Shown here: piece after piece, positions 12,382-64,000 of the stretch | How the letters are laid out: each line of letters opens with the position of its first letter | Numbering within the stretch: position 1 is the stretch's first letter | DNA from: a virus | IMG/VR virus record: IMGVR_UViG_3300020406_000408 | Coordinates: 4,464-68,463 of that record | Length of the DNA: 64,000 nt | Reading direction: 5' to 3' (one strand) | Made by a program: the position numbers and the translations under genes | Notes under the pieces: generated by a model | What the model was told of the DNA's origin: nothing | Databases searched by the model: none | The model's input: the letters and a program-made list of their open reading frames with translations, nothing else

Positions 12382-12386
12382 TCTTT

Positions 12387-12415: not shown

Positions 12416-12420
12416 TCATT

Positions 12421-16984: not shown

Positions 16985-16989
16985 ATATG

Positions 16990-16995: not shown

Positions 16996-17038
16996 TCTAA
17001 GTTATAGTGGTGTTTAATTCCTACAGATGCTTGCCAGC

Positions 17039-21047: not shown

Positions 21048-22407
21048 TTTTACAAATCTCCAAAAATTGTTCATACTCAGGAAAAATCTTTACAAAATTT
21101 ATATTTCTTCTTTTGTCATATTGTTTTGTAAACATAAAAAACATTTTTTGAGCTTCTTGCTGTTCTTTCCAGAAGTTATCTTTGTTTTTAAGTCTATGCT
21201 CTACATCTGATACAATACGTTCTAGCTTTACAGTTTCAATCTGTTTGAAGCCATGATGATCTGTGTTTTCTTGCATAAATTTTAGAGCAGGTTTTAAGTA
21301 ATCATCTACTACTTGCTCATTTGCTATTTTAACATCTAAGAACGCAGGATTTCGTACATACGGAATGTCAATAAGTATCCTTTGATTTCCTTGATGCTTA
21401 CCCCAATATGTTGACTTCAAATATAGTACCCAGATCAAAAACGATTTAAATGTTGGCAAACTATAAATGTTAAAAGCACTCATGAAACTGATTTTGCTAG
21501 TGGTATTCCTAGCAAAGTATTCAATATTATCAGTAAATAAACGCCAGTCCATACCAAATCTACTGTACTCTGCTTGTGGGCCTGTGCTTTCTGCACTGGT
21601 GTATAGACAAAATTCTCTAATAGCATTAGAGTCTTCTAACTTTTTTATAGACTTTGTAAACTGTTTCCATAAATCTTTAGGTGGACATCCGTTACTATTA
21701 ATTGCAAATTTTAGATCAGGTTGCGGATGTTCAATAAGATAGTCGATTACCCGTTGCGTATGTTTGCTTAATAATGGTTCTCCTCCTGTAATACGGAAAG
21801 TGTGCATGTGTTTTACAGCTTCGGGAAACCATTTCCAAAACGCTTCAATATAAGGATTTTCTTCACGCTCAGGTATAGGAGTTTCATTTGGATCAATCAT
21901 GTTATATGACCAAGTGTTTAAGTCATATGGTCCTTTTTGCTTGACTTCTTCCATCCACTTACTACTAAAAGGAGGTCCACAGTATGCACATTTAAAATTA
22001 CAAACATTTGAAAAACTTATTTCTACATATCTTGGATAAAAGTCTTCATTACCTGTAAATTTACTAATTGTATCATAATCACTCCAACTAAAAGCATCCG
22101 CACTTTTATAAACTCTATCACTAAATTTATCAGTGTTATCTTCAATACGCCAACAGTAATCACACTCGGCTGGACGTTCATTATTAAGCATTTGCTTTCT
22201 TACGTTTTTTTTAAATCCTGTGTTATGTAAAGCATTGGGATTATTTTTTAATTCTTGGAGATCAATTCTATGTGCCTTGACATGATGACAACTGTGATTT
22301 ATACCAGTACCTAAATGAATTGTCACCTGTGTCCATTTTGCGAGACAAAATCCGCATCCGACATTATCTAACTTTTGCTTGACTTCATTCGGTTCACCTT
22401 TAAGCAT
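21040..22407 (-). CDS. Radical SAM protein with N-terminal twitch-like domain
   Basis: FCLAKW...SCHH...ECDYCW; CNFKCAYC; TGGEP; NSNG. Confidence 0.9.
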   Translation of the reverse strand: MLKGEPNEVKQKLDNVGCGFCLAKWTQVTIHLGTGINHSCHHVKAHRIDLQELKNNPNALHNTGFKKNVRKQMLNNERPAECDYCWRIEDNTDKFSDRVYKSADAFSWSDYDTISKFTGNEDFYPRYVEISFSNVCNFKCAYCGPPFSSKWMEEVKQKGPYDLNTWSYNMIDPNETPIPEREENPYIEAFWKWFPEAVKHMHTFRITGGEPLLSKHTQRVIDYLIEHPQPDLKFAINSNGCPPKDLWKQFTKSIKKLEDSNAIREFCLYTSAESTGPQAEYSRFGMDWRLFTDNIEYFARNTTSKISFMSAFNIYSLPTFKSFLIWVLYLKSTYWGKHQGNQRILIDIPYVRNPAFLDVKIANEQVVDDYLKPALKFMQENTDHHGFKQIETVKLERIVSDVEHRLKNKDNFWKEQQEAQKMFFMFTKQYDKRRNINFVKIFPEYEQFLEICKNV

Positions 22408-28278: not shown

Positions 28279-28286
28279 TATTTATA
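28279..28286 (-). promoter_or_regulatory. T4-type late promoter TATAAATA
   Basis: Exact T4 gp55 consensus 25 nt upstream of the ATG at 28254. Confidence 0.65.
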
Positions 28287-32836: not shown

Positions 32837-32844
32837 TATTTATT
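32837..32844 (-). promoter_or_regulatory. Late promoter AATAAATA
   Basis: Overlaps the upstream stop codon, about 19 nt before the ATG at 32818. Confidence 0.5.
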
Positions 32845-38800: not shown

Positions 38801-41800
38801 TGTGATATCCTGTGTTTCTAATAATTGTGAGTACTGGTAATGATTTCCGGTTTTTCTGTATACAACTATCCTTCTATTAGGTACACTACTATCATCAGCG
38901 TTGAGATATCTTGCTGTTGATATCAAAACGTTTCCATCGGTGCTTACGTCGTAATCTGCTCCAAATTCTTCTAAGAATTTTTGTTCTAAAGTGCTTTCAG
39001 TAATGCTGTAGTTTGTATCATTTGGCACATATCCAAGTAAATCCACACCACTGTCTATTGTTTGCCATAAGTTTACATTAAACGCACCGGGTACAGTATT
39101 TGTTTTTGCTTTATAAATTGTTTCACCAAATCTTATTAGATCGTTTGTAAAATAGCTAGATGCTGTATTGTATGTTCCTCTATAATTGTTATCATTAGAT
39201 AAAACAAAATCATCGGTAGAGCTTTTATCAAACATGTAAATTCTACCTTCATTCAGTTCAGTTTTATCCCCTGCCGCCGATACAAATAATTTGTATGTAT
39301 TAGCATCTAGTTGGGCAAATTTAAGTTTAGTTCCAAGTCTTCTTCCAGGTGCTGAGTTAGGTACAGTATAGTAGCCTTTTAGATCAAAAGTTAATTCTTT
39401 TCTTTCATATATGGCAAATGTTCCTTCATTATCAAAAGTACTACCGTAACCACCTGTGGTCAATGGAATATTGTAAGTCCTATTCCAATCTAAGTTTAAT
39501 GGTCCTGGCGGATTAGCTGAATCTTCTACACCTAATATAGTTCTCGTATTATAAATCCAGTACTCTCTATCTTGTAAAAATATAGAAGTACCAACCTGTA
39601 TGTTTTGTGCTTTGTCAACAATTAACATCACACCTGCTGTTGTATTTTCTAAATGTGCACTGCTAATCGGTCCTATGGTTCTGACAGTACTGTCATTTTC
39701 AACAAATGTCATACTAGATGTCTCGCCAAAGTCTACACCTTTACTAAATGTACCATTTCTATTTTTTAAATATATTCGTATAGTTGCAAATTCTCTTTGA
39801 ATATAAGCTACTTCTGCTGTACTTCCAGTAGTTGAACAGGTAACAGTATCTCCTATTTGTGGAAGGAATGGGTCGCCATTTAGGTCAAAGTTTGTCAATC
39901 TTACAATACAAAAGCCGTTCCAAATATCGTTGATTGTATGTTCTGTATTGTTAAGATAGTCAAAACTTAAATTTAACACAGGTTCTGGGTCTTGTCTGAC
40001 ACCGTTATCATATAAAGTGTTTGCCCACATTCTAAATTTATCACCAACTTGGTATGTAGATCCGTGTTGTAATTCTGTTCTTACAAACCATCTTGTATCA
40101 ATTACATTGGAAGAAGTTGCTCCGTTATAGTAACTTAATATACCATAGAAAGAATTTCTAGCTGGTTCGGTAGTTTGTTGTTGCACTACTGTGTCTAAAA
40201 TATTTGTAAAAGGACTAGGTGTACTAGGCGCACCTACTTCAGATAGTGTGAGATCTCTAACAACTAGATTAGGATTAGTTTCTATTAAGTTGGATGAACT
40301 AAATGTGCTACCTACAGCTATTTGCCACCAACCTGTATGATAATCATCACCTACATGATTAACAGTTGTGAAGGCTCCAACAGTAACATTATTACGTTGT
40401 ACCGTACCTGAAGTCTGTAGTTCTCCATTTACATTGTTTAGATACAGTATCATTTTATTATCAGAATCTATAAATCTATATGCTACGTTTGCCCTAGCTG
40501 TGTCTGTTGTAATTTCATCTCCTACGTCTGGTACATCAAGAGCACTTATAATTTCTATCACCATTTTTACTTTGTTAACAATAACATGATTGCCATTCAA
40601 GAATGATTCGTTTATTACTGGATCATTATTGAAGGGTGAAACACCTGATAAAGCCCCAGTTTTATACTGATTCCATTTTAAAGTTAATATATCACCCGCT
40701 TTAGATGCTTCCCATTGTTGCGTTTCTGCCCTTATTAAAATATGATCTGTACTAGCGGTTGGCATACTATGATTGCCACGCATCATATAAACTATTGTAG
40801 GATAACTTTGTGAAGTAGAATCGTAATCATTTTCAGCCGCTTGAGCATTTGAAGCATGATTAATACAACTTTGTACAGCCTGGGCTTCTATTGCTCTGTC
40901 TGCTTGCCAAAGTTGTTCTTTGTATAAGATAATATCACCTTTGACATAAGCTGTTTGATTATTGTAATCTCCCTTGTAAAAACTTTTAGTATTAGAAGCT
41001 TGTGGAGAACCTACTGCTAACCATTTACCATCAGGACTTAAAGAAGCACTGGTCCCGAAGCCTCCGTTTTGATCAAAGTAAAAAGCATCTTCATCAATCT
41101 GTTGTAATAAATTATAATCAGTAGCTTCACTTGGTCTATTATAGATGTATACGCTTCCATTTAAATCTTTTGGAGCTGTGATAGCCATTAAATTATTTTG
41201 ATCATTGACCGTAATACTTGAGCCAAAATCTTTTTGTGTGCTATCTAATAAACCTGCTGTGGTATTTACAATATTAGGTTTAAGCTCATATACCTGTTTG
41301 TAATTTAAAACAAGCCATCTACCTGTGTCATCATCGTCCACCCATATTCTATCACTGCTTAAATTTGTACTTCCGATTGAAAAGGATCTTGAACCTTCAC
41401 CTTCAATATTATCATTTGCTTCGCTTAATTTTTTTAATCGTACATTTTTAAATCTTGTTACAAAACCGTTGGCCGAAGCTGTAGCTGTAATATTTGTTGT
41501 TGACTCGTGTTCTAAGGTTATTACATTAAGACTTATTGTTTTAATTTTATAATACCCGTCTGTATCTGTATCTATGTCATTGACAGCAACAATGTCACCT
41601 ACTTCAAAATTTGTTGCTTTGTCGAGAGTGATTGTAAAACTATTATCTACTGTGTCTGTAGTGCTTTTTATTTTATATTCTGTAGGAATATATTTGTATA
41701 CTCCCCAAGTCTTTTGACTTTTATCGATAGCAGTCCAAACATAATCTCCACCTTTTAAATTTCCTAAAGTTTGTGTGCTTAGATCAGTATAATTAAGTAA

Positions 41801-44800
41801 TTGTAAATTTACGTCTAACGGATTTACATATCCCGCTGACTTAACAAACATATTGTCATCGTTATAGTATTTTGTTAGAAAAGGTTTATGATCGTAATTT
41901 TTTGATTTAGCATAAACACCATTTCTGTTTAATCTATAAACTAAACTAGTATCTTTAGGATTTATTTCGTCTACTAATTCAACAGGTTGTGGTTCCAATC
42001 TATATTTTTCTTCATCAAATAATATCTCAAATTGGTCATTTCCTTCTGTTGCTCCGTAACGTCCAGTTCTAATTGCCCACTCTTCAAAATATTCAATACT
42101 GTCTTTATTAGCACTTCCTAATTTATCGAACAATTTATTTAAAACGTTTTTAGTTCCTTTGTCTTGAATCATTCCTTGGAAAAATTTATATTGACTTACA
42201 TCGTCAGGAATAATATTTTCAAGATATTTCCTTTTTTGATATCCTATCATGTGTTGTGCTAATTTTTGTTGTTCAGAATCAAAATTATCACTATCTAAAT
42301 CATAAAAATCACTAAATTGTCTAGCCTTATAATCTAAGTTTGGAAGTAATTTTTGTGTTGGTTTTCCATCTAACTTTACAAAATTTTTAGCTATAAAAGT
42401 TTGCGTTCCAGACACATTACTTTTTGCCACGTAATAAAATTCTTTATGCTGTATAAGATCACCTATCTTATAATCTTGATAAGCTGTCCATTCATTTATA
42501 AACGCATCATCAAACACAAATCCAGGAACATTTAATGAGCCATTCCATTCGTCTGATCTATAACCTTTAACTTTTATTCTTTCCTGCCTATATCCTTGCG
42601 GACGATTATATATTACATCATTGAATACGGTTGTGTTATCTATAACAACAGCATGTTCAAGTTGTATTACAGGTATTTTAAGATGATAGATTCCTTGATC
42701 TGTATTTTTTACATATATTCCAAATTGATTTGTGTTATCTCTCTCGGTTGTAGCAAAGTCTGCTAACAATCGTTTTCCATCAGCTTGTAATAAACTGTAG
42801 TCATAAAAATTATTATAAATGTCATCAACTACTGTAAAGGGTTTTTCAAAATAAATTTGTCTTGCTGACGGACTTATTGTTAATACTGCTCCGTTATCCC
42901 AATTTTGTGTTGACCAAAACATAAACTCTTTGGCACTTAAAGCCCAGTTTTCAATTTCTTCTAGTTCTTTGTTAAATGTGTCAAACGAGAATCCTACCGT
43001 TAATAAATATTTTTCATAACCTAAAATTAAATCAACTACTGCTTGTATATCTGGAAACACGGTACCATAGTCTATTTTTTCTAGCGTAGTACTAAAGTTT
43101 TTGGAAAAGAATGCGTTTGCTCCGCCTTCTGCTGGAAGTTCTGCGAGTCTAGTAAAAAAGTTTAAATCAATTGATCCTCCTGATGTATGGCCTGTCGTCG
43201 TTCTATAGAACACTCCATTATTTTCTACAATTTGTCCTATGGAATAAAATTTTCCGCTATCAAATGTTACAAACTCTTCACTTATACCTCCAACATTAAT
43301 TAAAATATCACTTTGTTTTCTTTCAATGGGATAAATGTTGAAATATGGTCTATCTTTATCATAACCTTTTACAATAAATCCACTAGGTATTTTTTCAATA
43401 ATCATACCACTATAAGAATATACATCTAATGGAATACTTTTCGTTAAAACAAGATTATAATTCTCTTCAGGTACAAAAATATTTCCTTCATTTTGCGGAT
43501 TTCTACTATCTAGTATAAGCCTAAATTTATCTTTTTGTGTAAAGCCACCAATTTTATGTCCTAGTTTATTTTCTAAACTAGCTAGTTTGCTTTTATATGT
43601 TTTGAAAGTAACATCTTCATTCCCAATTAAGTAACTTTGCATATAGTTTACCAAACCAGAAGTAAATATTCTAGTTGTATCGCTCGGTATGTTAGGAAAT
43701 TTTAAATCTTTAAGATTAATTCTTTTTGATGTATCTGTGTAAACAAGTTGTCCGGCTAAATTTCTTGCTATTCTACTTCTATCAAATGCCAACCCAAAAA
43801 ACTGTGATGGTTGCCTTAGCATCCATGCTCTTACAAAAGCAAACGGATAATGTGAACTTCTTCTCCACGCAGTTTCTACAGGACTTTCATGTCCAAATGT
43901 AAAATTGTCATCATAGTTACTTGCTATTCCTCCACGAAGGTAACCTGTAGATACAGGATCTAGAATATCACCTTGAGAATCAACAGGAATATATTTTGTT
44001 AAATCCTTAATTTTAAATTTTCTTCTATAATTAATTTTTTTATTTGGTTCTCTTACTATAGCTTTTTCTAAATCTTGCCAAAGTAGTAAATTATTGCTGG
44101 TATATGGAGCAGGGCCATAAGTTGTATCAAACCAACTCGGTTTAATTTTATAACCTAGACATTCCCACGGATGAGTGTGGGGCCTATCAGTATTGTAATA
44201 ATCTTTGTAGATTGCTCTCCAACCCCCTGGTACCGAATTGTTATCGGGATCTGAATGTTTATAAAAATTAATACTAAAATTATTTCCGTTCTTATAAAAA
44301 CTGTTTGAAGTATAATCTGGATTGCCAACAGTTTCTAGCCAGGCATTGAAATCAGATATCATTATATCCGCTGTCTTATATCTATCAAAAGCTGTGGGTA
44401 AAGATTTTGTGTTTAAAAAATCTTGAATGTCGATTATTGATTCATCGTAATCAATTTTTATATTATTATAAATCCTTTTTTCTAAATCTAGTAGTAAATT
44501 ATCTCTATAATCACCAAAACATCTCCACAATGAACCATCATGTCCTTGTATCATAGGCTGAGCCGCAGGCCATTCCTCAAACAAATTAGTATCATAACTA
44601 GCATGATTCATGGATCCGCTAGGCATAAACCAAAGTCTGTTGTCGCCAGCAAATGTGTGGGTATGTGCTAATCCTGTACCGCCGTTTGTTTTATCGTATG
44701 CTTGTGCCGAAACTTCATCTGTGAATAATGGATAAAACCATCCGACTTTATTTTTGTATGATTGAGTAGTTGTGTTGTCTCTTCCATATACCTTATACGG

Positions 44801-47800
44801 ACCTGTTGAATCAGGAATGGATGAAATGTATGTTGTATCTAAAATTATTTCAGGCACATATTTAGGATATAATCCTAATTTAGTTGGCGTAGGAGCTACC
44901 CAACAACCATCCGTAGACTCGTATTCATAAACTTTTAAGACTTGGTTTGCTTTCACTGGAACTTTAAGTTCTATAAAAGCATCAGTATCTATAGTGTAAT
45001 CAATATCTTTTACAAGTTGTTTTTCATCTAAATATGCTAAAATAGCATTTTCATTTAGTTTATCAAAACTTACTGTCCTTGTAATAGGAAAAATAGTTTG
45101 TGAAGTATCTTCTATAGTAAATTCTGCTAAAGTGTCTCCACCAAAAGGAACCATGTCACTGAAATAAAATGGATCCTGTTTTGTGTTAGTCTCAAACATT
45201 TTATCTAAAATTTTATCTACATGTATTTTTGTTTCACCTTCAAAACCTAGCTCGTCAGCAACTTTTAAAAATTCTCTTTTAAATGTAATATATTTTAATC
45301 CTGATTCCTTGACAGCATTGTTCATATCAAAATCTTTGCTTGTCAAATTAAACGTTGCTAAATTAATTGGGCCTGAGTGTTGGACAAATTTTAATCCATA
45401 GTCTGATGTTGGACCTAAATCTCTAAGGTTTCCCGCTCCAGGATAAACACCTGTGAAGTCACTTACGTTACTTACAATACTATCAACATGATCTATGACT
45501 TCTCCGAGTGTAAACGTTACCACGTTTTCATTCATAGGATTTTTTTCTAAGTTAATAGGAAATTTGTAATGTCCTCTTTGATTTTTTGGTGTGCTAGATT
45601 TTGTTTCTATCACAACTTTTCTATTCTCAGCTAAATTTGTGTAAAATCTTACATAAGCATATCTATTAATTCTATCTATTGTATAATCTATATTTTCTTT
45701 TTGTAAAATATTATCAAGGTAAACCATTACTTTTAGATCATTTAAATCTCCACTGTTATCATATACGTCAACAATAAAATTATTAAGTCGAGGACCTGTA
45801 GTGTATTGTTTAACCACAGGCTGTGAAGAAAGGCTTTTAGCCTTAATCCATCCTGTTACACTTGAGTATGTGTCTATATCAGTATATTTCCTTAAGATAC
45901 CAGTGTCGGTGCTGGCTGTAATTACATCAGCAACTTGATCATATTGGTAAGTATCACTTAATAAATTAAAGTCAAAGGTTATGTCCCCACTGTTTTCGAT
46001 AGTTCTATATGACAAAGGAAAACCTAGTTCTGTGTCATTAGTACCTGTACCTTGTTTATAAGAAAATAATTTATTACCTTTAAATGTACTTCCTTCTAAA
46101 GTATTAAGTGCTGTCCCACTGTCATTATACAAATCAAACATTGGAGACTGATTAATTGCTGTTTTGTTTTGTCCTAATTTCCAAGCAGTACCAGTATAAT
46201 AATAAATTTTACCTTTATTTTTATCTCCAGATTTTACTAACACAGTTTGATTTGTAACTGGAACTGTGTCAGTTGTTTCTATCAGTGTAATTTGATTATT
46301 ACTATTTTGGCTTATAAATTTTACCTCATAAATTTTTCCATTTACAAAACTATCAGGATCAGCTGTAAACAATACACGCATTCCTTGTACTAATTCTGTC
46401 CCGTCAACAAAGTATCCTGGACTGCCTTCTATATTAGAAAACACATCTGTGGTTACTGTATCAATAACATCTACAGACTTTTTAGCAAAAGTTCCAAAAT
46501 CATAAAGTTTCAAACCAGCATCAAACTCAATAATAGGTCTAATAGCTCTAAAATTTTGATCCAATGTTGTTGCTACTTCATTAATTTTGGCTGTAACGTC
46601 TATAACATCTTTGTGTGTCCATTTGTTATATCTAGACCATTGGTTTCTATCTTTGGAAGCTCTGTTAATAACAATATAATCTTTTTTGTCCGCATATGAC
46701 ACAGCATCATCAAAAGGTAAATCATCAAACCCTCCTTCGTCAAATTCAATGTCTTGATCCTGTAGGTATCCGGCAGTTATTTCTATTTCGGATTCTGATA
46801 TAAGCTGTATAGAATCTCCCACACCTTCAACATACCAGTATCCTTCTGTGTATTTTGTTGGATTCAAGTTTCCATAAAACTTTAATTTCATTCCGTTACT
46901 CAAAGAATATCCATTAGACATTGTGTAGGTTTTCTTGCCTACAATATCTTTATCAACATCCAAGAACGTATTGTCAATAATATCTTTTATAATAATAAGT
47001 CCTGAAGCTTCAATATTATTAGAATCAACGTAATATAAATTTGGAGGAGCTTCTAAATCTACTGTAAACTCTAAAACTCCATTTTCTGTTTTTTGTCCTG
47101 TTATACCTTTTGTATACAAGTTCGTATCATCTGTAATGTCAACCGAAGTTCTAATTGAAAAAGGCATGTCTACAGTATCTACTTCAAATCTATATGTTTG
47201 TCCTTTGTATAAAGTTAAAGTAGGATTTCCTGTAGGATTATCTTGATTGAATACGTATGCATCATTATCTAAATTAATTTGCTTGGTTACATTGTAAGTG
47301 CTTTTGACATTCCTAAACGATCCATACACAGGTATAGCATCTGGTCCTCCCGGTAACCAATAGTATTCTCTAAAGTTTGTAAACTTATCCCAGTTTACAT
47401 GTGGATTCCAAGCATAATATTCTTGGGAAAACATAGTATCATGATTAGCAGTATCAACACCACGTATCTTTATGCTGTTATATAAATCTCTATAATCTCT
47501 GTAAAAAATATTATTGCCAGCTGAGTCATTAATTACTGACACCGGCTCTAATTGATATTGATCTCTGTCTAAACTTATTTCAGATACATAATTATCACTT
47601 GCTGTAAAAGCCTTTGCGTCTTTTCTACCTATGAATCCGTCAACCTTTTCAACACTACCAGGTTGAACAAGTTGATCTAATGTACTTGATAAGAATTTTT
47701 TATTGGCTACTGTGCGATAGTAACGAGGTAATAAATCAGCAGACTTTCTTTTGTTTTTGTCTGCGTCATTTACTGGAATAGCATTTTCATCTTGTGCCAT
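32840..47800 (-). CDS. Giant (4986 aa) virion/baseplate protein
   Basis: Uninterrupted 15-kb ORF coupled to gp6. It carries a cupredoxin-like segment (NPTLTLYKGQTYRF..APPNLYY), FG-GAP-like repeats, GSGY..P.I.ITGGGGSGA repeats and FxGDGxTxxF repeats. Confidence 0.75.
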   Translation of the reverse strand: MAQDENAIPVNDADKNKRKSADLLPRYYRTVANKKFLSSTLDQLVQPGSVEKVDGFIGRKDAKAFTASDNYVSEISLDRDQYQLEPVSVINDSAGNNIFYRDYRDLYNSIKIRGVDTANHDTMFSQEYYAWNPHVNWDKFTNFREYYWLPGGPDAIPVYGSFRNVKSTYNVTKQINLDNDAYVFNQDNPTGNPTLTLYKGQTYRFEVDTVDMPFSIRTSVDITDDTNLYTKGITGQKTENGVLEFTVDLEAPPNLYYVDSNNIEASGLIIIKDIIDNTFLDVDKDIVGKKTYTMSNGYSLSNGMKLKFYGNLNPTKYTEGYWYVEGVGDSIQLISESEIEITAGYLQDQDIEFDEGGFDDLPFDDAVSYADKKDYIVINRASKDRNQWSRYNKWTHKDVIDVTAKINEVATTLDQNFRAIRPIIEFDAGLKLYDFGTFAKKSVDVIDTVTTDVFSNIEGSPGYFVDGTELVQGMRVLFTADPDSFVNGKIYEVKFISQNSNNQITLIETTDTVPVTNQTVLVKSGDKNKGKIYYYTGTAWKLGQNKTAINQSPMFDLYNDSGTALNTLEGSTFKGNKLFSYKQGTGTNDTELGFPLSYRTIENSGDITFDFNLLSDTYQYDQVADVITASTDTGILRKYTDIDTYSSVTGWIKAKSLSSQPVVKQYTTGPRLNNFIVDVYDNSGDLNDLKVMVYLDNILQKENIDYTIDRINRYAYVRFYTNLAENRKVVIETKSSTPKNQRGHYKFPINLEKNPMNENVVTFTLGEVIDHVDSIVSNVSDFTGVYPGAGNLRDLGPTSDYGLKFVQHSGPINLATFNLTSKDFDMNNAVKESGLKYITFKREFLKVADELGFEGETKIHVDKILDKMFETNTKQDPFYFSDMVPFGGDTLAEFTIEDTSQTIFPITRTVSFDKLNENAILAYLDEKQLVKDIDYTIDTDAFIELKVPVKANQVLKVYEYESTDGCWVAPTPTKLGLYPKYVPEIILDTTYISSIPDSTGPYKVYGRDNTTTQSYKNKVGWFYPLFTDEVSAQAYDKTNGGTGLAHTHTFAGDNRLWFMPSGSMNHASYDTNLFEEWPAAQPMIQGHDGSLWRCFGDYRDNLLLDLEKRIYNNIKIDYDESIIDIQDFLNTKSLPTAFDRYKTADIMISDFNAWLETVGNPDYTSNSFYKNGNNFSINFYKHSDPDNNSVPGGWRAIYKDYYNTDRPHTHPWECLGYKIKPSWFDTTYGPAPYTSNNLLLWQDLEKAIVREPNKKINYRRKFKIKDLTKYIPVDSQGDILDPVSTGYLRGGIASNYDDNFTFGHESPVETAWRRSSHYPFAFVRAWMLRQPSQFFGLAFDRSRIARNLAGQLVYTDTSKRINLKDLKFPNIPSDTTRIFTSGLVNYMQSYLIGNEDVTFKTYKSKLASLENKLGHKIGGFTQKDKFRLILDSRNPQNEGNIFVPEENYNLVLTKSIPLDVYSYSGMIIEKIPSGFIVKGYDKDRPYFNIYPIERKQSDILINVGGISEEFVTFDSGKFYSIGQIVENNGVFYRTTTGHTSGGSIDLNFFTRLAELPAEGGANAFFSKNFSTTLEKIDYGTVFPDIQAVVDLILGYEKYLLTVGFSFDTFNKELEEIENWALSAKEFMFWSTQNWDNGAVLTISPSARQIYFEKPFTVVDDIYNNFYDYSLLQADGKRLLADFATTERDNTNQFGIYVKNTDQGIYHLKIPVIQLEHAVVIDNTTVFNDVIYNRPQGYRQERIKVKGYRSDEWNGSLNVPGFVFDDAFINEWTAYQDYKIGDLIQHKEFYYVAKSNVSGTQTFIAKNFVKLDGKPTQKLLPNLDYKARQFSDFYDLDSDNFDSEQQKLAQHMIGYQKRKYLENIIPDDVSQYKFFQGMIQDKGTKNVLNKLFDKLGSANKDSIEYFEEWAIRTGRYGATEGNDQFEILFDEEKYRLEPQPVELVDEINPKDTSLVYRLNRNGVYAKSKNYDHKPFLTKYYNDDNMFVKSAGYVNPLDVNLQLLNYTDLSTQTLGNLKGGDYVWTAIDKSQKTWGVYKYIPTEYKIKSTTDTVDNSFTITLDKATNFEVGDIVAVNDIDTDTDGYYKIKTISLNVITLEHESTTNITATASANGFVTRFKNVRLKKLSEANDNIEGEGSRSFSIGSTNLSSDRIWVDDDDTGRWLVLNYKQVYELKPNIVNTTAGLLDSTQKDFGSSITVNDQNNLMAITAPKDLNGSVYIYNRPSEATDYNLLQQIDEDAFYFDQNGGFGTSASLSPDGKWLAVGSPQASNTKSFYKGDYNNQTAYVKGDIILYKEQLWQADRAIEAQAVQSCINHASNAQAAENDYDSTSQSYPTIVYMMRGNHSMPTASTDHILIRAETQQWEASKAGDILTLKWNQYKTGALSGVSPFNNDPVINESFLNGNHVIVNKVKMVIEIISALDVPDVGDEITTDTARANVAYRFIDSDNKMILYLNNVNGELQTSGTVQRNNVTVGAFTTVNHVGDDYHTGWWQIAVGSTFSSSNLIETNPNLVVRDLTLSEVGAPSTPSPFTNILDTVVQQQTTEPARNSFYGILSYYNGATSSNVIDTRWFVRTELQHGSTYQVGDKFRMWANTLYDNGVRQDPEPVLNLSFDYLNNTEHTINDIWNGFCIVRLTNFDLNGDPFLPQIGDTVTCSTTGSTAEVAYIQREFATIRIYLKNRNGTFSKGVDFGETSSMTFVENDSTVRTIGPISSAHLENTTAGVMLIVDKAQNIQVGTSIFLQDREYWIYNTRTILGVEDSANPPGPLNLDWNRTYNIPLTTGGYGSTFDNEGTFAIYERKELTFDLKGYYTVPNSAPGRRLGTKLKFAQLDANTYKLFVSAAGDKTELNEGRIYMFDKSSTDDFVLSNDNNYRGTYNTASSYFTNDLIRFGETIYKAKTNTVPGAFNVNLWQTIDSGVDLLGYVPNDTNYSITESTLEQKFLEEFGADYDVSTDGNVLISTARYLNADDSSVPNRRIVVYRKTGNHYQYSQLLETQDITENWGQTIAISNDGKKIAVGAPDNSTRDIRGGAVYIYIQGTDGRFALNQTLRPIDRTSNTRFGSKIDFDGNTLAIASRGGDLERVTTLDQDTTIFDNGNTPFKVIDNDSGLVSIYETVNDTLLYGQDFSYDKDTQDFGSIMLVKNNHVYLGLPKQQILSNNTIDRGLVAEYRKPVNTTSWTIGRQPIVPMDVTKLKGVNLFDKNTNGLVTYLDYIDPLQGKIAGAAEQEITFKVSYDPAKYSVATATGVTLDTLDYTADQWVGKIWWDIGSARFINHHQGDILESTANFNTLFPGTTADVYEWVETNLLPSEWDTQSGTEAGLTNGISGTTKYGDSAYSTRRIYDSASQTFTNNYYYWVKNKATLPTDVNRKTTASDISKLITTPTQQGVKFISPLGNNRFALYNCRSLIKDKDVGITFNWWTIENQEQNVHNEYQIISDGLETSIPNDTVKQKWVDSLVGFDVNDRPVPDVELPVRQRYGNLNEPRQGWFINKTEARKQFVERVNKILKTELIVDNKDLSGLTEIDPTPTSVSGVYDTTSDTFAELNFISVANVKQAKLTLEIENGTIINVLLTDPGKGYLNPPTYKIKDSTGTGAVLNFVLATDGSIASVDIINGGINYVSPSIEVRKFSVLVKTDETVGGKWAVFSWDGTEWLRTLTQAYDVNAYWQYIDWYATGYNNFTPINYTISSSYELYGLGDKIGDIVKINNVGTGGWLLLEKEDDQDTEDYTVNYKTVGRQNGTIEFKTSLYDVSNENIAYDGSGFDKIFYDTEPVAEMRLIIGILENKIFVDDLLKNWNECFFAGLRYVFTEQPNVDWAFKTSFIKAKHNVGELEQRVTFKNDSLPSYESYINEVKPYRTKVREYLSSYEKTDPSSTVVTDFDLPTLYNDAEGRITPQSVQVIDNKIVSGFSEITKYPSKHWAENIGFELQSLNIADTGSGYLDAPIIKITGGGGSGAKATAFIGTDGKVTAVKVNNTGSGYLSQPTITLEGSLQDGGTAARLSPVLGGGKARSTHLRCKFDRVTGTYLFSQLSTTETFTTNSNQQIFDLKWPMQLKNTQITVTVDGLEALRSEYTFENKSDTTKGYLRKYGRIFFTEPQTASKSVVITYNKSAELLQAQDRINFYYNPTTGMFGNDLGQLLDGVDYGGVEVSSYNFGTGTGWDSDAWFTTTYDTFDTTFDDEIFQMDGSTEVFTLSKPLENNAVYNVYLNGKRIDDPNFGTASQTNINAVMSSITGDGTQTTITITNDIQKFVANDVVVFRKTTSDGSFLPDPRSYDTILSGGDLQFSTAKGINPEEIIIDGDGFVTPTTSKGPEEQIPGQVLDTVDIKVFHRPGEGGSLISSNCYNANGTTVDFGFGIQPQSENGLFVRLNRITQSPNTYTVDYKNKTVRFNTTPSNGASVNIISVSGNGENVVEFDEFTGDGCTTQFKTKAHWTTKLDYIATVDGKEAQSVLVSSEDSAIEDPKAVIVFGSPPRDGSVINFAVYDKVQSYSKIETQEFTGDGSTLNFTLEKTPYSSIPHTHNVVVQVGNKILNAGYNQQFTVQTGVSEYFLEIWQTPIGSFDNSNVLALLNGTELKIATEFNIRPANSSIILEPGIGQPGDILEVYIRDDGEYAFGAVEVINNQNTWVETPGVLKLDVAPTEGQIIKITTYSKHDIQDFERQTFDVIARSTLVVGSEDHVQYNHLKAGLIELRKPAIDAQYVWFIVNGELKNPSVDYYLTDDKKYVKYNNVIVDNDVIDVIQYSADGPISPKFGFSQFKDILNRNIYKRLGDVAPLKLAEDLKVTDKQISLVDASNISAPDKNSGIPGILFINGERITYLVKIGNVLKQLQRGTLGTGAPAVHSAGSDVYNQGLQQTAPYADTTITEDFVGDGSTSIFELSFIPSTVNEFEVFVAGKRLRKNSIQMFDVTRNQDSPEADITSPAQFSVDGTTNQLTLTNTPANLAKIQVIRRTGTLWTDSGQSLNDAESLVARFFKAEKVELPK

Positions 47801-58966: not shown

Positions 58967-58995
58967 TTGACAAAATTAACAGAGTATATTATAAT
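58967..58995 (+). promoter_or_regulatory. Consensus sigma70 promoter TTGACA-N17-TATAAT
   Basis: TTGACA at 58967-72 and TATAAT at 58990-95. Confidence 0.85.
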
Positions 58996-59018
58996 GTGGT
59001 ATGAACCTTGGAGAAACA

Positions 59019-59861
59019 ATGAAAAGAATTAATTATTTAAACAACAAAGACATATTAGCAGAGATTCACAAGTCTAAATCATCGTTTTGTAGCTTTACGG
59101 ACAACGATTTTGCTGACTTTGATATAATATTACCTAGTGTGTCTAAAATAAATGTCCGTACAATAGCAGAAGCAAAAAGGAACAAGGCAAAAAAATTACA
59201 GCAAAAAGCATTTGAAAAGGCAAAAGAAAGTGGTAAAAGAGTAAAATTAGCAGAATTTGCTATTGATTATCGAAAAATAGAAAAAACGGACGTGATATTT
59301 AGGATTATGATGTATGATCATATTCCTGAAGAACCAGGACGTAAGAAAAATCCTAAAACAATAGCAGACACAAAAACAAAGGTAAATTTTCCTCCGTTCC
59401 AGCATTATAAATTTAATGACAATGGTGAACTTATTTGCGTAGGTAAAAGTCACTGGGAAGGCGGTATGGAAAATGGTAATTTTACTAAAGAAGGTGGTAA
59501 GGTAACAAATAAACTTGCTTTGATGTGGATGAAACTGTGTGATAGATATGCTACCCGTGGAAATGTAAGAGGATACACATATAATGATGAGATGCGTGGA
59601 CAGGCAATACTACAGTTGTCTCAGATCGGATTACAGTTTGATGAATCCAAATCTAATAATCCTTTTGCGTATTATACTGCGGCCGTGACAAATTCATTTG
59701 TAAGAGTTATTAATATAGAAAAAAGAAATCAAAATATTAGAGATGACATCTTAGAAATGAATCATATGAATCCTAGTTACACTAGACAGGCAAAAGGAGA
59801 ATGGGAGCGTCAACAGCGTGACCATAATTTAGCTACCCAAAAAGCCCAAAAAACTGATTGA
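59019..59861 (+). CDS. Late-transcription sigma factor, T4 gp55-like
   Basis: NYLNNKDIL, NVRGYTYNDEM, FDESKSNNPFAYYT and NSFVRVINIEK. A GGAGA RBS precedes the ATG at 59019; 59001 is an alternative start. Confidence 0.85.
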   Translation: MKRINYLNNKDILAEIHKSKSSFCSFTDNDFADFDIILPSVSKINVRTIAEAKRNKAKKLQQKAFEKAKESGKRVKLAEFAIDYRKIEKTDVIFRIMMYDHIPEEPGRKKNPKTIADTKTKVNFPPFQHYKFNDNGELICVGKSHWEGGMENGNFTKEGGKVTNKLALMWMKLCDRYATRGNVRGYTYNDEMRGQAILQLSQIGLQFDESKSNNPFAYYTAAVTNSFVRVINIEKRNQNIRDDILEMNHMNPSYTRQAKGEWERQQRDHNLATQKAQKTD

Positions 59862-59886
59862 CAAACTCTTAGTTTTCTATTATAAT
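59858..59886 (+). promoter_or_regulatory. Consensus sigma70 promoter TTGACA-N17-TATAAT
   Basis: TTGACA at 59858-63 and TATAAT at 59881-86, upstream of gp47. Confidence 0.85.
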
Positions 59887-59906: not shown

Positions 59907-60917
59907 TTGTTTAAAAAAGCGGCGGTTTTTACTGATATCCATCTTGGATTGAAGTCTAACAGTAAAGTTCATTTACAGGATTGTGAAGAATTTGTAGATT
60001 GGTTTATCCAAAAAGCAAAAGATAACGGTTGTGAAACTGGAATATTTTGTGGAGATTGGCATCACAATCGAAATACTATTAATGTACAAACACTTGATAC
60101 TACAACTAGGTGTTTAGAAAAACTAGGTAAGGCATTTGAAAAGTTTTATTTCTTTGCTGGTAATCATGACTTGTATTACAAAGATAAACGCGATATCTAT
60201 TCGTTAGAGTTTGGTAAACACATTCCTGGTATTACTTACGTAGATGAAATATTACAAGAAGATGACGTTGTTCTTGTTCCTTGGTTAGTAGGTGAAGAAT
60301 GGAAACAGATTTCCAAGATCAAAGCAAAATATATGTTCGGTCATTTTGAACTTCCTAACTTCTATATGAATGCCATGGTACAGATGCCAGACACTGGTGA
60401 GTTGAAGGCTGAACACTTTAAGCATCAAGACTATGTATTTTCAGGACACTTCCATAAAAGACAGGTACAAGGAAAAATACATTATTTAGGAAATGCTTTT
60501 CCGCACAACTACGCAGACGCATGGGATGACAAACGTGGCATGATGATCCTTGATAAGGAAAACAACAAAGAACCAGTATATATAGACTGGGATGATTGTC
60601 CAAAATATAGAACTTTAAAACTCTCTAAACTGCTAGATGAAAAAGAAAAACTATTAAAAAGTAAAATGTATCTTAGAGTTACACTTGACTTACCTATATC
60701 ATACGAAGAAGCTAGTTTTATAAAAGAAACTTTTGTAAACGAATATGACTGTAGAGAAATAACACTTATTCCAAGTCAAAAGGATGAAGAGATACACACT
60801 GATATTGATATAAGCACATTTGAAAGTGTAGATCAAATTGTAACGAAGGAGATTACGGCAATTGATACTGAACAATATGATAAAAACACGCTGTTAAGGA
60901 TATATGACGAACTATGA
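59907..60917 (+). CDS. Recombination endonuclease subunit (T4 gp47 / Mre11 / SbcD)
   Basis: Metallophosphoesterase motifs TDIHLG, GDWHH, GNHD, GHFE and SGHFH. Confidence 0.92.
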   Translation: MFKKAAVFTDIHLGLKSNSKVHLQDCEEFVDWFIQKAKDNGCETGIFCGDWHHNRNTINVQTLDTTTRCLEKLGKAFEKFYFFAGNHDLYYKDKRDIYSLEFGKHIPGITYVDEILQEDDVVLVPWLVGEEWKQISKIKAKYMFGHFELPNFYMNAMVQMPDTGELKAEHFKHQDYVFSGHFHKRQVQGKIHYLGNAFPHNYADAWDDKRGMMILDKENNKEPVYIDWDDCPKYRTLKLSKLLDEKEKLLKSKMYLRVTLDLPISYEEASFIKETFVNEYDCREITLIPSQKDEEIHTDIDISTFESVDQIVTKEITAIDTEQYDKNTLLRIYDEL

Positions 60918-62692
60918 TAAAAATTAAGAGCCTTACAGTAAAGAATTTTATGAGTGTGGGTAATCAAACCCAAGCAGTTGACTTTGATAAACAACAATTA
61001 ACTCTTGTACTTGGTGAAAATCTTGATCAAGGCGGAGATGATATGGGTTCTCGAAACGGAACTGGAAAAACAACAATCATAAACGCATTAAGTTATGCTT
61101 TGTATGGTATAGCACTAACAAATATTAAAAGAAATAATTTAATTAACAAAACCAACAACAAAGGTATGTTGGTTACTTTGACTTTTGAAAAAGACGGCAC
61201 AGATTATAAAGTAGAAAGAGGACGTGGTCCTAATCTACTAAAATTTTTTGTTGATGATCAAGAGCAAGAAATGACTGACGAAAGTCAAGGTGATAGCCGT
61301 AAAACACAGGAAACAATAAATGAACTGTTAGGAATGAGTCATAACATGTTTAAGCATATACTTGCTTTAAACACATATACGGAACCATTCTTAAGCATGA
61401 AGGTAAATGATCAAAAGGACATTATTGAGCAACTGCTTGGTATAACAATACTTTCTGAAAAAGCAGAAACCTTAAAAGAAAAAATTAAACAAACTAGAGA
61501 TAATATTACAGAAGAAAACGCAAATATAAACGCCAAGCAACAGAGTAATGAAAGAATTAAAGAAACTATAGATAGCTTAAAGATAAAACAGAGTGCTTGG
61601 GAAACAAATAAAAAGACAAATCTTGAAAAATTACAAAGAGGTATACGTGAACTAGAACATCTTGACGTTGATGGTGAATTAGAAAAACACGAAAAACTAA
61701 AAAACTGGGAAGAACTAAACACAAGAATCAACACACTAAAGAAAGAAACAGCAACACTAGACTCTACATTGCTAAGAGCTAACAATTCAGTAGATAAAGT
61801 TAAAAAAGATATTGAAGAACTTGATAATGCTGTGTGTTATGCTTGTGGTCAAGAACTACAAGAAGATAAAGTAAAAGAAATAGAAAACAAAAAAGCCAAA
61901 GAATTAGAAGATGCTGTTTCTTATCAAAAAGAAATCACAGATAAATTATCCGAAGCAAACAATCAGCTTACAGAAATAGGTGATATAAATGGCCGGCCTG
62001 ATACTTTTTATGAAACTATCAAAGAAGTTTATGATCACAAACAAAATGTAGCACAACTAAAACAAGCATTCGAAAATAGTCAAAATGAAACTGATCCTTA
62101 TCAGGAACAAATTGATGATTTGACTAAAACAGGAATCCAAGAAGTTGATTGGACCACAATCAACGCACTCAATGATCTCAAAGAACATCAAGAGTTCTTA
62201 TTAAAACTGTTGACAAACAAAGACAGTTTTATACGTAAAAAGATTATTGATCAAAACTTGGCATACTTGAACAACAGGCTCACACATTATCTTGACAAGT
62301 TAGGACTTCCACATCAGGTTGTTTTCCAAAACGATCTAAATGTTGAAATTACACAGCTTGGACAGGATCTTGATTTTGACAATCTTTCCAGAGGTGAGCG
62401 TAATAGGTTGATTCTTGGTATGAGTTTTGCTTTCAGAGATGTCTGGGAGAGCTTGTATCAAAATATTAATCTACTGTTCATTGACGAGCTTGTTGATTCG
62501 GGTATGGATACTAGTGGAGTTGAAAACAGTTTAGCTATACTAAAGAAGATGGGAAGAGAACGTCATAAAAACGTTTATCTCATATCGCATAAGGACGAAT
62601 TGGTTGGTAGAGTTACACACGTACTAAAAGTAATTAAGGAAAACGGCTTTACATCATATGAAAATGACGTGGAAATATTTAATGAAAGATGA
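60914..62692 (+). CDS. Recombination ATPase subunit (T4 gp46 / Rad50 / SbcC)
   Basis: KNFMSVG, Walker A NGTGKT, Zn hook CYAC within a coiled coil, signature LSRGE, Walker B LFIDE and ISH. Confidence 0.93.
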   Translation: MIKIKSLTVKNFMSVGNQTQAVDFDKQQLTLVLGENLDQGGDDMGSRNGTGKTTIINALSYALYGIALTNIKRNNLINKTNNKGMLVTLTFEKDGTDYKVERGRGPNLLKFFVDDQEQEMTDESQGDSRKTQETINELLGMSHNMFKHILALNTYTEPFLSMKVNDQKDIIEQLLGITILSEKAETLKEKIKQTRDNITEENANINAKQQSNERIKETIDSLKIKQSAWETNKKTNLEKLQRGIRELEHLDVDGELEKHEKLKNWEELNTRINTLKKETATLDSTLLRANNSVDKVKKDIEELDNAVCYACGQELQEDKVKEIENKKAKELEDAVSYQKEITDKLSEANNQLTEIGDINGRPDTFYETIKEVYDHKQNVAQLKQAFENSQNETDPYQEQIDDLTKTGIQEVDWTTINALNDLKEHQEFLLKLLTNKDSFIRKKIIDQNLAYLNNRLTHYLDKLGLPHQVVFQNDLNVEITQLGQDLDFDNLSRGERNRLILGMSFAFRDVWESLYQNINLLFIDELVDSGMDTSGVENSLAILKKMGRERHKNVYLISHKDELVGRVTHVLKVIKENGFTSYENDVEIFNER

Positions 62693-63093
62693 TATTAGAT
62701 AAAATTAAAAATCGTGGTGAAGAAATGGCTCCGTTAGAAGGGCATGATAGATTACAGTATCTTATTGACATAGCTAGAGAAGTACCTCCTCTAGAAGACA
62801 AAGATAAAATAGACGAAAATAAAATCAGAGGTTGTGCTAGTAATCTCTGGGTAGTAGGAAAAGTCAATGAAGATGGAACAATGTCTTACAAACATGACGC
62901 AGATGCTTGGATAACGAAAGGCACAGCAAAAGTTTTGGTTGATCTATTAGATGGTGAACACCGTAGTGCTATAGCACAGCTGACCTTGGAAAGTTTTGAA
63001 GGCTTGGGAATTAGAAATCTTTTGACTATGCAGAGACAAGTAGGCTTCGGCAGTTTAGTAGAACGCATGATAGGAATAGCAAAGAATGCATGA
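62689..63093 (+). CDS. sufE: SufE-family sulfur acceptor (Fe-S cluster assembly)
   Basis: DRLQYLID, ENKIRGCASNLW with the conserved Cys, DADAWITKG and LTMQRQVG. Confidence 0.85.
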   Translation: MILDKIKNRGEEMAPLEGHDRLQYLIDIAREVPPLEDKDKIDENKIRGCASNLWVVGKVNEDGTMSYKHDADAWITKGTAKVLVDLLDGEHRSAIAQLTLESFEGLGIRNLLTMQRQVGFGSLVERMIGIAKNA

Positions 63094-63286
63094 TGACATA
63101 CATGATAAGCTAACCAAGGCATATATGGCATATTTCAAGGCAAATGAAGCATTTGAAGCAAGAAATTCAGTACGTACACACAGAGAGACTCGTAAATGGC
63201 TTCGTGAAATAAGATCTTTAGCAAAACAACGCATGGATGAAGTACACGATAGGCATAATTCCAAAAAGGACGTCCCAGAAGATTAG
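63086..63286 (+). CDS. Small basic helical protein, possibly histone-like Hc1-type
   Basis: RETRKWLREIRSLAKQRMDEV loosely resembles Hc1-like proteins; the ORF overlaps sufE. Confidence 0.4.
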   Translation: MHDDIHDKLTKAYMAYFKANEAFEARNSVRTHRETRKWLREIRSLAKQRMDEVHDRHNSKKDVPED

Positions 63287-63293
63287 GCTAGGG

Positions 63294-63299
63294 TAAGTA
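63294..63299 (+). promoter_or_regulatory. Putative late promoter variant TAAGTA, 5 nt before the ATG
   Basis: TAAGTAtccatATG. Confidence 0.45.
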
Positions 63300-63304
63300 T
63301 CCAT

Positions 63305-63727
63305 ATGCGATGGACTTACCAAGGTAAAGAAATAGAAGAATTACCCGAAGATGTAGAGGGATTTGTATATCTAATAACCAACAAGACCAACGATAAAAAG
63401 TATATAGGCAAGAAATTAGCCAAATTTAAGAAAACACGCCCACCACTCAAAGGCAAGAAAAACAAAAGAAGAAGCAAAGTAGAAAGCGATTGGCGAGATT
63501 ACTGGGGATCCTCAGATCATTTGATCGCCGACGTTGAAAAAATAGGACCAGAAAATTTTACAAGAGAAATATTGTATCTATGTCAAAGCAGAGGCTTAAT
63601 GAGTTATTTAGAGGCTAGGGAACAATTCAACCGCAGAGTGTTAGAAACTGATGAATACTACAACGGAATCATCAATGTGCGGGTAGGTAGTTCAAAAATT
63701 CTTAAAGAACAACTAAAAAAAATCTAG
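63305..63727 (+). CDS. Small GIY-YIG nuclease
   Basis: GFVYLITN.....YIGKK, YWGSS, FTREIL, the conserved Glu in YLEARE, and YYN. Confidence 0.8.
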   Translation: MRWTYQGKEIEELPEDVEGFVYLITNKTNDKKYIGKKLAKFKKTRPPLKGKKNKRRSKVESDWRDYWGSSDHLIADVEKIGPENFTREILYLCQSRGLMSYLEAREQFNRRVLETDEYYNGIINVRVGSSKILKEQLKKI

Positions 63728-63734
63728 GCAATAT

Positions 63735-64000
63735 AGGACGCTGTTTGATCGAGGAGGCTCGATCCGCTTTGAGGTGTAGACCAGAGCTACATCAGAACTG
63801 GCGTGTCCATTAAACTGTTGCTCCAAAAAACTCCTAGCAAAGGAACGAAGCGGGAGATAGCGAGATCCGCGAAGCGGTTGCGGTAGCAAAACCGGTTACG
63901 CAGATTTTCGTGATGTCGACGTAGGTTGGGAAAGGTCAGAGCCCATGGAGCAAGTCAAATACCTACTTCCGGTCTCGGCTGTGCGAACTCACATGAAGCT
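63735..64000 (+). ncRNA. Candidate large structured non-coding RNA, running off the window edge
   Basis: No ORF in the track and GC clearly above the background. Many stems and a crossing pair of long-range helices are visible. Strand is inferred from the flanking gene and G-U pairs. Confidence 0.6.

Follow-up and report, generated by a model that had tools for sequence, protein, structure and literature searches.

We analysed the last 64 kb of the 68,463-base viral contig IMGVR_UViG_3300020406_000408 from IMG/VR (all 64,000 nucleotides (nt) together are called the window hereafter), in which the recombination genes gp47 and gp46 are directly followed by a gene for a SufE/CsdE-family sulfur acceptor. 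With moderate confidence, we favour the explanation that the gene encodes a functional persulfide carrier of a viral lineage, which would stimulate the cysteine desulfurase of the host to the benefit of the iron-sulfur (Fe-S) proteins of the phage, including nine radical S-adenosylmethionine (SAM) enzymes encoded in the same window. The protein has the family signature, the predicted fold and the catalytic cysteine of SufE, its place behind a conserved promoter is kept in related phages, and viral homologues stand beside Fe-S assembly genes and radical SAM genes in other phage genomes.

The phage protein has the fold and the acceptor cysteine of SufE

The open reading frame (ORF) matched the Pfam family PF02657 over residues 18-127 (profile positions 10-118 of 121) with an E value of 6.2e-29 and a score of 100.7 bits. 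This score lies above the curated cut-off of 27 bits and places the protein in the SufE/CsdE family. Its best sequence matches in the Protein Data Bank (PDB) were CsdE (E 6.3e-13) and SufE (E 3.9e-12). Using a profile of 16 phage homologues, the protein was aligned without gaps to E. coli SufE (chain 1mzg/11mp), residue 19 falling on residue 21 of the chain and Cys49, within the motif NKIRGC, on Cys51. Cys49 also aligned to the cysteine of the IAGC motif of CsdE. We take Cys51 of SufE and Cys61 of CsdE to be the acceptor residues, and the number 51 agrees with the PDB title 'SufE C51A'. The phage cysteine thus occupies the acceptor position; it is invariant in 16/16 diverse phage homologues, in which the acidic and arginine positions common to E. 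coli SufE are conserved as well.

The AlphaFold model of the protein (predicted local distance difference test, pLDDT, 88; predicted template-modelling score, pTM, 0.83) shows the two-layer alpha/beta arrangement of SufE, with Cys49 in a loop between two flanking strands (residues 45-47 and 52-59). In a Foldseek comparison, template-modelling (TM) scores against SufE and CsdE structures ranged from 0.73 to 0.79, with 0.79 for SufE 3g0m, 0.78 for SufE 1mzg and 0.77 for CsdE 5nq6. The phage protein therefore resembles E. coli SufE (1mzg; SufS-SufE complex 8vbs) in family, fold, acceptor cysteine and size (134 vs 138 aa). In contrast to the E. coli protein, to which it is 23-26% identical in structural alignment, it is encoded outside a sufABCDSE operon, on phage contigs without sufS, and falls into a virus-associated clade apart from cellular homologues. 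Judged by these features, the ORF encodes a predicted SufE-family persulfide acceptor of viral lineage, whose partner would be a SufS-like or a CsdA-like desulfurase.

sufE is coupled to gp46 behind a conserved sigma-70 promoter

The start of sufE at 62689 and the end of gp46 at 62692 share the sequence ATGA, and gp46 overlaps gp47 by 4 nt as well. In 51 related loci with both gp46 and SufE, the two are spaced by -4 nt in 29, -1 nt in 10, +1 nt in 10 and +3 nt in two, and hence by at most 3 nt in 51/51. The gp47-gp46-SufE-orf66 operon is preceded by a sigma-70 promoter that matches the consensus at 12/12 positions, and a second perfect site stands before the neighbouring gene for a gp55-like late sigma factor (Table 1). 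Two perfect sites in 64 kb compare with 0.09 expected, and 0/100 shuffled sequences reached this number. In 40/40 related loci, gp47 is preceded at 19-29 nt by a promoter that has a 17-nt spacer and matches the consensus at 10/12 positions or more (22 perfect, 6 with 11/12 and 12 with 10/12). No terminator-like site was detected on the plus strand between the gp47 promoter and sufE, and neither known RNA families nor tRNAs were found near sufE.

The motif TATAAATA, which we take to be the late-promoter motif of phage T4, occurs once in the window compared with 13 +/- 3.5 expected occurrences. This single site (28279-28286, minus strand) lies 25 nt upstream of an ORF starting at 28254; the fibre-proximal genes and the radical SAM island described below are located downstream of it. 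Such strong avoidance, in a phage encoding a gp55-like sigma factor, suggests that the motif acts as a functional late promoter. The sigma-70 promoter of sufE and the single late-motif site would fit an early expression of SufE and a late expression of the island. Contigs from seawater RNA libraries (4 runs from 4 studies) match segments of the operon, among them 62658-62902 (1 mismatch) and 63037-63276, and 5-14% of the sampled words were found in 24 such runs; these matches carry no strand information and are no proof of transcription.

The original prediction, which had been made from the sequence alone, described an intact SufE with its acceptor cysteine, joined to gp46 by an ATGA overlap downstream of a sigma-70 promoter and expressed ahead of the island. 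The first three of these features were confirmed here by the family score, the predicted fold and the equivalence of Cys49 with Cys51, by the tight gene spacing throughout the related loci, and by the promoter kept in position before gp47. The expected early-type expression draws support from the consensus promoter and from the location of the gene next to that of the late sigma factor.

Viral SufE proteins separate from the sampled cellular homologues

SufE proteins of this clade were found in 78 IMG/VR loci with identities of 63-99%. A word-indexed protein search yielded 2,334 relatives, the top 120 of which were all 69-96% identical and came from marine metagenomes. Scanning one genome per species for 185,579 prokaryote species revealed no close relative, and a scan of the same genomes with the family profile found only proteins of 25-37% full-length identity (Bacteroidota, Alphaproteobacteria, Woeseiaceae). 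In an exhaustive HMMER search against 1.84 billion representatives, scores fell from 244 bits within the protein's own cluster to a broad background of at most 78 bits. The few intermediates (42-59% identity) were metagenomic; one of them, the P0136 type, is located on viral contigs, and relatives of the P0131 type were not found in viral contigs. A tblastn search of SufE against 50,697 phage records returned only five weak matches (26-34% identity), and two of these come from records that are short or evidently bacterial. PHROGs contains no family for this SufE, nor for a second viral SufE clade, which is 42% identical and was found in 9 IMG/VR loci. A recent capture from the host was considered and rejected, given that the species scan found no close cellular relative, that the named ones reach at most ~37% identity, and that the scores of the HMMER search drop steeply.

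For a quick maximum-likelihood tree, 115 sequences were aligned over 148 columns. The sample comprised 58 of 59 cellular loci, 16 viral sequences of the first clade and 9 of the second, and 32 unnamed representatives selected from the best full-length matches. The 58 cellular sequences fell on one side of a branch with a Shimodaira-Hasegawa-like approximate likelihood ratio test (SH-aLRT) support of 99, and both viral clades, together with six unlabelled metagenome sequences, on the opposite side. With a short alignment and a cellular sample that is pattern-biased, the tree shows a separation of viral from cellular SufE, not a dated origin. Pairwise ratios of nonsynonymous to synonymous substitution rates (dN/dS) against the window copy were 0.014-0.160 in 11/11 pairs, at synonymous sites near saturation, and the gene is thus under strong purifying selection. 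As a conserved metabolic gene in a bona fide phage genome with signs of purifying selection, it qualifies as a viral auxiliary metabolic gene.

In 52/78 loci the gene is embedded in an array of gp47, gp46, SufE, orf66 and a SegE-like gene, which we refer to as context A; in 26/78 it is located at other places in T4-like genomes. In the tree, the window SufE clusters (SH-aLRT 95) with three copies, one from context A, accompanied by a gp46 of only 70% identity, and two from outside it. Conversely, context-A phages with an 89% identical gp46 carry a SufE of 71% identity. The SufE tree is discordant with the genomic contexts, and the gene has therefore changed phage lineage and genomic position repeatedly. 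A recent recombination event was rejected as the cause of the 95% SufE versus 70% gp46 identity of the L013 type, as the nucleotide identity is only 84% and synonymous sites, with a proportion of differences (pS) of 0.63, are close to saturation. This high protein identity is attributed to strong constraint; the discordance between SufE tree and synteny remains. One relative with 89% identity to the window SufE (P0020) occurs on contigs of up to 226-259 kb and is labelled 'MAG: Fe-S metabolism protein SufE [Rickettsiales bacterium]' by one source. Taking the remaining evidence together, this is probably a phage contig that was binned into a bacterial metagenome-assembled genome (MAG).

Homologues in other phages are linked to Fe-S assembly genes

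In the 13/26 loci outside context A that were annotated, SufE follows a glycosyltransferase downstream of gp32/UvsX, a ribonucleotide reductase (RNR) or an IMPDH-like gene (with Hsp20 behind SufE), lies between a 2-oxoglutarate (2OG)-Fe(II) oxygenase and UvsW or in UvsY/UvsW neighbourhoods, or is found close to primase and ClpP or to ligase and PsiE. A compact cluster is present in locus L073 (L073:2859-11273; record G008), which stems from a T4-like phage of a different lineage with a SufE of 68% identity. There, a radical SAM gene and one unknown gene precede SufE. A B12-binding radical SAM gene begins 6 nt behind SufE, and next come genes for a PF01883 protein (DUF59/SufT-type, Fe-S assembly), for a protein with a TonB-dependent-receptor plug domain and for ThyX. 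On the contig of locus L072, three radical SAM genes lie 5.5-10 kb from SufE.

Similar links were observed in the second viral clade. In 3/3 loci examined (L143, L144 and L146), UvdE, a Cu/Zn superoxide dismutase and one further ORF precede SufE, which is followed by a PF01521 A-type (IscA/SufA-type) carrier. The ORF between the dismutase and SufE is a radical SAM gene in L144 and has no Pfam match in L143 and L146. Moreover, the 250-aa protein P0291 is a fusion of SufE with a PF01521 carrier. Through these independent associations, viral SufE is connected with Fe-S biogenesis and, more loosely, with radical SAM enzymes; from the comparative gene context, an Fe-S role of the phage SufE is likely.

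Two alternatives for the biochemical function have to be weighed at this point. Acting in the manner of CsdE, the phage protein could relay sulfur from a CsdA-type desulfurase to a non-Fe-S acceptor, in tRNA, cofactor or nucleic-acid modification. Support for such a relay comes from sequence comparison, in which CsdE is marginally ahead of SufE (PDB E values as given above; 58.0 vs 56.9 bits with the NCBIfam models), and from the lack of suf scaffold genes beside SufE in this lineage. Structures of E. coli CsdE (YgdK; 4lw4, 5ft8, 1ni7), the best single-sequence match in the PDB, yield TM scores of 0.73-0.78 with the cysteine aligned, although the phage protein stays under the equivalog cut-off for CsdE. 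Against a relay, E. coli SufE reaches a higher score with the family profile (53.1 bits) than CsdE (48.4 bits), the genes found next to homologues include Fe-S carriers and the DUF59 Fe-S assembly protein, and five contigs contained no CsdA-like gene in a search that did not include CsdL/TcdA. We consider a CsdE-like relay very unlikely.

Even less credit is given to the idea that the phage SufE is a decoy or inhibitor, which binds the host desulfurase unproductively and thereby diverts or stops the sulfur trafficking of the host. The deep divergence of the clade from cellular SufE (at most ~37% identity) and its own invariant motifs, which could reflect an altered function, are compatible with a decoy. 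Yet the acceptor cysteine and the acidic and arginine positions of E. coli SufE are kept, the phage has many Fe-S enzymes of its own that require this pathway, and homologues are paired with Fe-S carriers, all of which makes a decoy highly improbable.

The phage genome encodes an island of radical SAM enzymes

Nine ORFs on the minus strand of the window match PF04055, 8/9 of them above the curated cut-off and two with a SPASM domain. Exactly one CX3CX2C motif is present in each of the nine ORFs (9/9). They belong to a 20-kb island of small enzymes, which follows a T4-type baseplate module and tail-collar/fibre genes on the same strand. The baseplate module consists of a gp5-like gene, a PAAR gene, gp25 and a giant ORF of 4,986 aa. 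At 58.9 kb the gene orientation switches, and the genes for gp55-like protein, gp47, gp46, SufE, the 66-aa ORF and the SegE-like protein follow on the plus strand.

CheckV estimates a completeness of 19% for the window contig and of 41% and 51% for two related contigs of 146 kb and 182 kb, respectively. From these figures the genome is probably ~350 kb in size and that of a jumbo phage, a value that is an estimate implied by CheckV and not a measurement. The nearest isolates by gp46 are the Pseudomonas jumbo phage PA5oct and its relatives with 50.5% identity, and a megablast search with 60000-64000 against isolate phages found no close DNA relatives. Of the remaining statements of the original prediction, the phage origin of SufE and the jumbo size of the phage are supported, the latter resting on the CheckV completeness figures, and the count of nine radical SAM enzymes is upheld by the Pfam matches and the cysteine motifs.

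Does SufE serve the radical SAM enzymes?

All SufE-bearing contigs used for comparison are fragments with 11-51% completeness, and the sample includes no SufE-negative sister lineage. Four other context-A contigs extend into the region 40-60 kb upstream of SufE, and in 4/4 the island is found there, equally distant and equally oriented, with 4, 8, 10 and 11 PF04055 matches. Several observations weigh against a dedicated service of SufE to these enzymes. SufE is 40-57 kb away from the island, on the opposite strand and within a block of replication and recombination (DNA-metabolism) genes. It is fixed in the lineage at radical SAM counts from 4 to 11, so that its presence does not scale with their number. 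The 26 loci outside context A place the gene elsewhere, and among the 13 annotated ones radical SAM genes lie within 6 kb of SufE only in L073. Furthermore, 8/15 other SufE-bearing contigs searched, within the range of completeness given above, had no PF04055 match.

The search for further assembly genes adds to these points. The gene is not located beside sufS or sufBCD, its neighbours being gp46, the 66-aa ORF and the SegE-like gene. A phage SufS was not found in five related contigs (60-182 kb), and any effect of SufE therefore depends on a host desulfurase. The same five contigs had no match to the PF01521 A-type carrier, and PF01883 was detected only in G008 and not in the lineage of the window, for which up to 182 kb were available. 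Finally, the phage protein remains below the NCBIfam equivalog cut-offs for SufE (NF006792, 56.9 vs 160 bits) as well as for CsdE (TIGR03391 and NF011594, 58.0 vs 136.4 and 46.8 vs 252 bits), and a SufE-like and a CsdE-like choice of partner are therefore indistinguishable. A sole PF00266 match, in G001, was examined as a candidate SufS and rejected; it is a DegT/DnrJ sugar aminotransferase with 294 bits to PF01041.

Alternatively, SufE could be a general Fe-S housekeeping or stress gene, which keeps the SUF assembly and repair of the host running after shut-off or under oxidative, iron or sulfur stress. Replication and the metabolism of the host at large would then benefit, with no special tie to the radical SAM island. 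Such a function agrees with the location of SufE mostly in early DNA-metabolism blocks (gp47/46; gp32/UvsX, primase, RNR, ligase, UvsY/UvsW or UvdE), with the Cu/Zn superoxide dismutase that adjoins the second-clade SufE in 3/3 loci, and with a constant SufE at variable radical SAM numbers. A survey of oxygen-minimum-zone (OMZ) viromes, in the sections drawn on here, likewise reads viral sufE as a booster of the stress response (PMC8940887). On the other hand, radical SAM genes stand directly beside SufE in L073, one precedes it in L144, and the island is found in 4/4 informative contigs of the lineage. We regard a purely general function as a serious but rather unlikely alternative, and its benefit to replication and host metabolism without any tie to the island as equally so; it is, moreover, not mutually exclusive with the stimulation of Fe-S supply for phage proteins that we favour.

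The claim that SufE supplies Fe-S clusters for the nine radical SAM enzymes has thus to be divided. Its first part, a role in Fe-S biogenesis, is backed by the comparative gene context. The second part, a specific service to the island, does not find this backing, with 4-11 radical SAM genes per constant SufE and at least 40 kb between them; the evidence for it is circumstantial, and such a service is plausible.

Further features of the window

The coordinates of the features are compiled in Table 1.

Table 1 Features of the window discussed in the text, with positions counted from its first nucleotide.
Feature	Position	Strand	Size or start	Evidence or location
Radical SAM island, nine genes	6114-22407	-		PF04055; downstream of baseplate/fibre genes
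Radical SAM gene	6114-7634	-		PF04055
Radical SAM gene	11266-12381	-		PF04055
Radical SAM gene	12421-13362	-		PF04055
Radical SAM gene	13362-14429	-		PF04055
Radical SAM gene	14422-15594	-		PF04055
Radical SAM gene	15584-16984	-		PF04055
Radical SAM gene	17039-18085	-		PF04055
Radical SAM gene	18082-19239	-		PF04055
Radical SAM gene	21040-22407	-		PF04055
Giant ORF	32840-47800	-	4,986 aa	Between baseplate and fibre genes; sole Pfam match FG-GAP repeat
Sigma-70 promoter	58967-58995	+	TTGACA-17-TATAAT, perfect	Before gp55-like gene
gp55-like late sigma factor	59001-59861	+	286 aa	phrog_12791 E 6.5e-80, 269 bits; phrog_234 E 7e-22
Sigma-70 promoter	59858-59886	+	TTGACA-17-TATAAT, perfect	20 nt before gp47 start; gp47-gp46-SufE-orf66 operon
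gp47 / SbcD-Mre11-like nuclease subunit	59907-60917	+	336 aa, TTG start	Pfam Metallophos E 4.6e-6; phrog_100 SbcD-like E 2.9e-67
gp46 / SbcC-Rad50-like ATPase subunit	60914-62692	+	592 aa	phrog_77 E 7.5e-104; Pfam AAA_23, SMC_N
SufE/CsdE-family sulfur acceptor	62689-63093	+	134 aa, ATG start	Pfam PF02657; AlphaFold model; Foldseek
Conserved ORF (orf66)	63086-63286	+	66 aa	Overlaps SufE stop (ATGATGA)
SegE-like GIY-YIG endonuclease domain protein	63305-63727	+	140 aa	Pfam PF19835 SegE_GIY-YIG E 4.6e-36, 124 bits
Structured non-coding element	63740-64000		Cut by contig end	Just after SegE-like gene

In T4, genes 55, 47 and 46 likewise adjoin one another. The gp55-like ORF has no Pfam match; its homology to phrog_234 is confined to residues 160-269 and is preceded by a long N-terminal extension common to phrog_12791. 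Downstream of SufE in context-A loci, homologues of orf66 are 53-100% identical, and neither a Pfam nor a PHROG family was found for this ORF. At L013:5862-6998, a gene for a 379-aa serine hydroxymethyltransferase (PF00464, 497 bits) is inserted between SufE and orf66. An insertion at the equivalent position is present in L014, L022, L035-L037, L039 and L043, and a shorter gap in L062; the family was checked in L013 only. The SegE-like protein consists of the catalytic domain alone and is conserved with 73-99% identity across context-A loci rather than sporadic, which is unusual for a homing endonuclease.

Besides the radical SAM genes, the region 286-25799 encodes TauD, two Asp/Arg-hydroxylase or 2OG-oxygenase-like proteins, two weak nitroreductase-like matches, a RIO-kinase-like and a sulfotransferase-like protein. 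In the homologous island of G001, a DegT aminotransferase, a carbamoyltransferase, methyltransferases, a class IV aminotransferase and an IMPDH-like gene are found in addition. The island looks like a variable pathway for the modification of small molecules or glycans. The giant ORF is reminiscent of the giant 'VrlC' protein that is described for the host-recognition cluster of pelagimyophages in the part of PMC7029224 used here.

The SegE-like gene is followed by a structured non-coding element, full copies of which are present at L002:5248-5660, L018:7037-7452, L060:7034-7470 and L051:7110-7480. A core of ~150 nt is invariant in 7/7 diverse loci, whose flanking proteins are only 56-80% identical. 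RNAalifold predicted 65 base pairs, 8 of them with compensatory changes, including the long-range helices GUAGGUUG/CAAUCUAC and GGUCAGA/UCUGACU. A search of Rfam returned no match even at E <= 10, and the element is a candidate for a new phage RNA.

Discussion

The explanation that we favour can be formulated as a sequence of steps. Early in infection, the sigma-70 RNA polymerase of the host would transcribe sufE, a neighbour of the late sigma factor gene gp55, from the consensus promoter, and its translation would be coupled to that of gp47-gp46. Cys49 would then take over the persulfide from a type II cysteine desulfurase of the host (SufS or CsdA-like). This transfer would relieve the rate-limiting release step and increase the flux of sulfur into Fe-S cluster assembly. 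Later in infection, the extra supply would benefit the Fe-S proteins of the phage including the nine radical SAM enzymes, and possibly also host Fe-S enzymes that the phage needs. In this scheme, the host SufS as partner, its stimulation, the early timing and the radical SAM enzymes as main beneficiaries are inferred.

A more far-reaching version, which we put forward as a speculation and hold to be doubtful, treats the old, virus-associated SufE superclade as a virus-private branch of the sulfur relay. The phage protein would tap the desulfurase of the host and pass the persulfide preferentially to acceptors chosen by the phage, instead of merely boosting the SUF scaffold of the host. Such acceptors may be the phage radical SAM enzymes or phage-encoded carriers, such as the paired A-type carrier or the DUF59 protein. 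SufE alleles common to phages of different synteny would then reflect a match to the SufS of the host, not the phage lineage.

The idea that viral Fe-S assembly genes serve viral Fe-S enzymes is already published, and the gain of the present analysis is one of detail and breadth, not of principle. As far as the passages used here go, Nishimura et al. 2017 (PMC5332604) described marine T4-like viral genomes with A-type carrier (ATC), IscU and paaD together with up to 12 radical SAM genes (in a 183-kb genome), and proposed that the viral assembly factors serve viral Fe-S proteins. The phage analysed here is comparable in being marine and T4-like, in combining an Fe-S biogenesis gene with many radical SAM genes, and in the interpretation given. 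In contrast to the genomes portrayed in those passages, which have ATC, IscU and paaD and not SufE, it is larger (~350 kb estimated) and carries a factor of the sulfur-donor side.

Viral sufE without sufS was reported from OMZ viromes by Jurgensen et al. 2021 (PMC8940887), who, in the sections consulted, take SufE to be limiting in the host. Unlike the present work, that study is, within those sections, a gene survey at the level of reads or contigs, without genome context, clade analysis or a link to radical SAM enzymes. It was the only paper returned by a full-text literature search for SufE with phage and auxiliary-gene terms. The terms Fe-S, iron-sulfur, SufE and radical SAM are absent from the marine jumbo-phage papers PMC9123017 and PMC12619734. 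For pelagimyophages, the consulted portion of PMC7029224 describes radical SAM cassettes within the region of host recognition.

For an infecting phage, such a gene may matter for several reasons. Iron is scarce in the surface ocean, and Fe-S clusters are costly and stress-sensitive cofactors, for which demand would rise suddenly once nine or more radical SAM enzymes are made late in infection. The family is absent from PHROGs and, apart from the five weak matches, from isolate phages, and it therefore represents a viral metabolism known only from metagenomes. The protein itself is small and should be easy to express. A conserved and constrained gene of the sulfur-donor side, widespread in uncultured marine jumbo phages, suggests that the SufS-SufE step is a bottleneck that the viruses have brought under their control.

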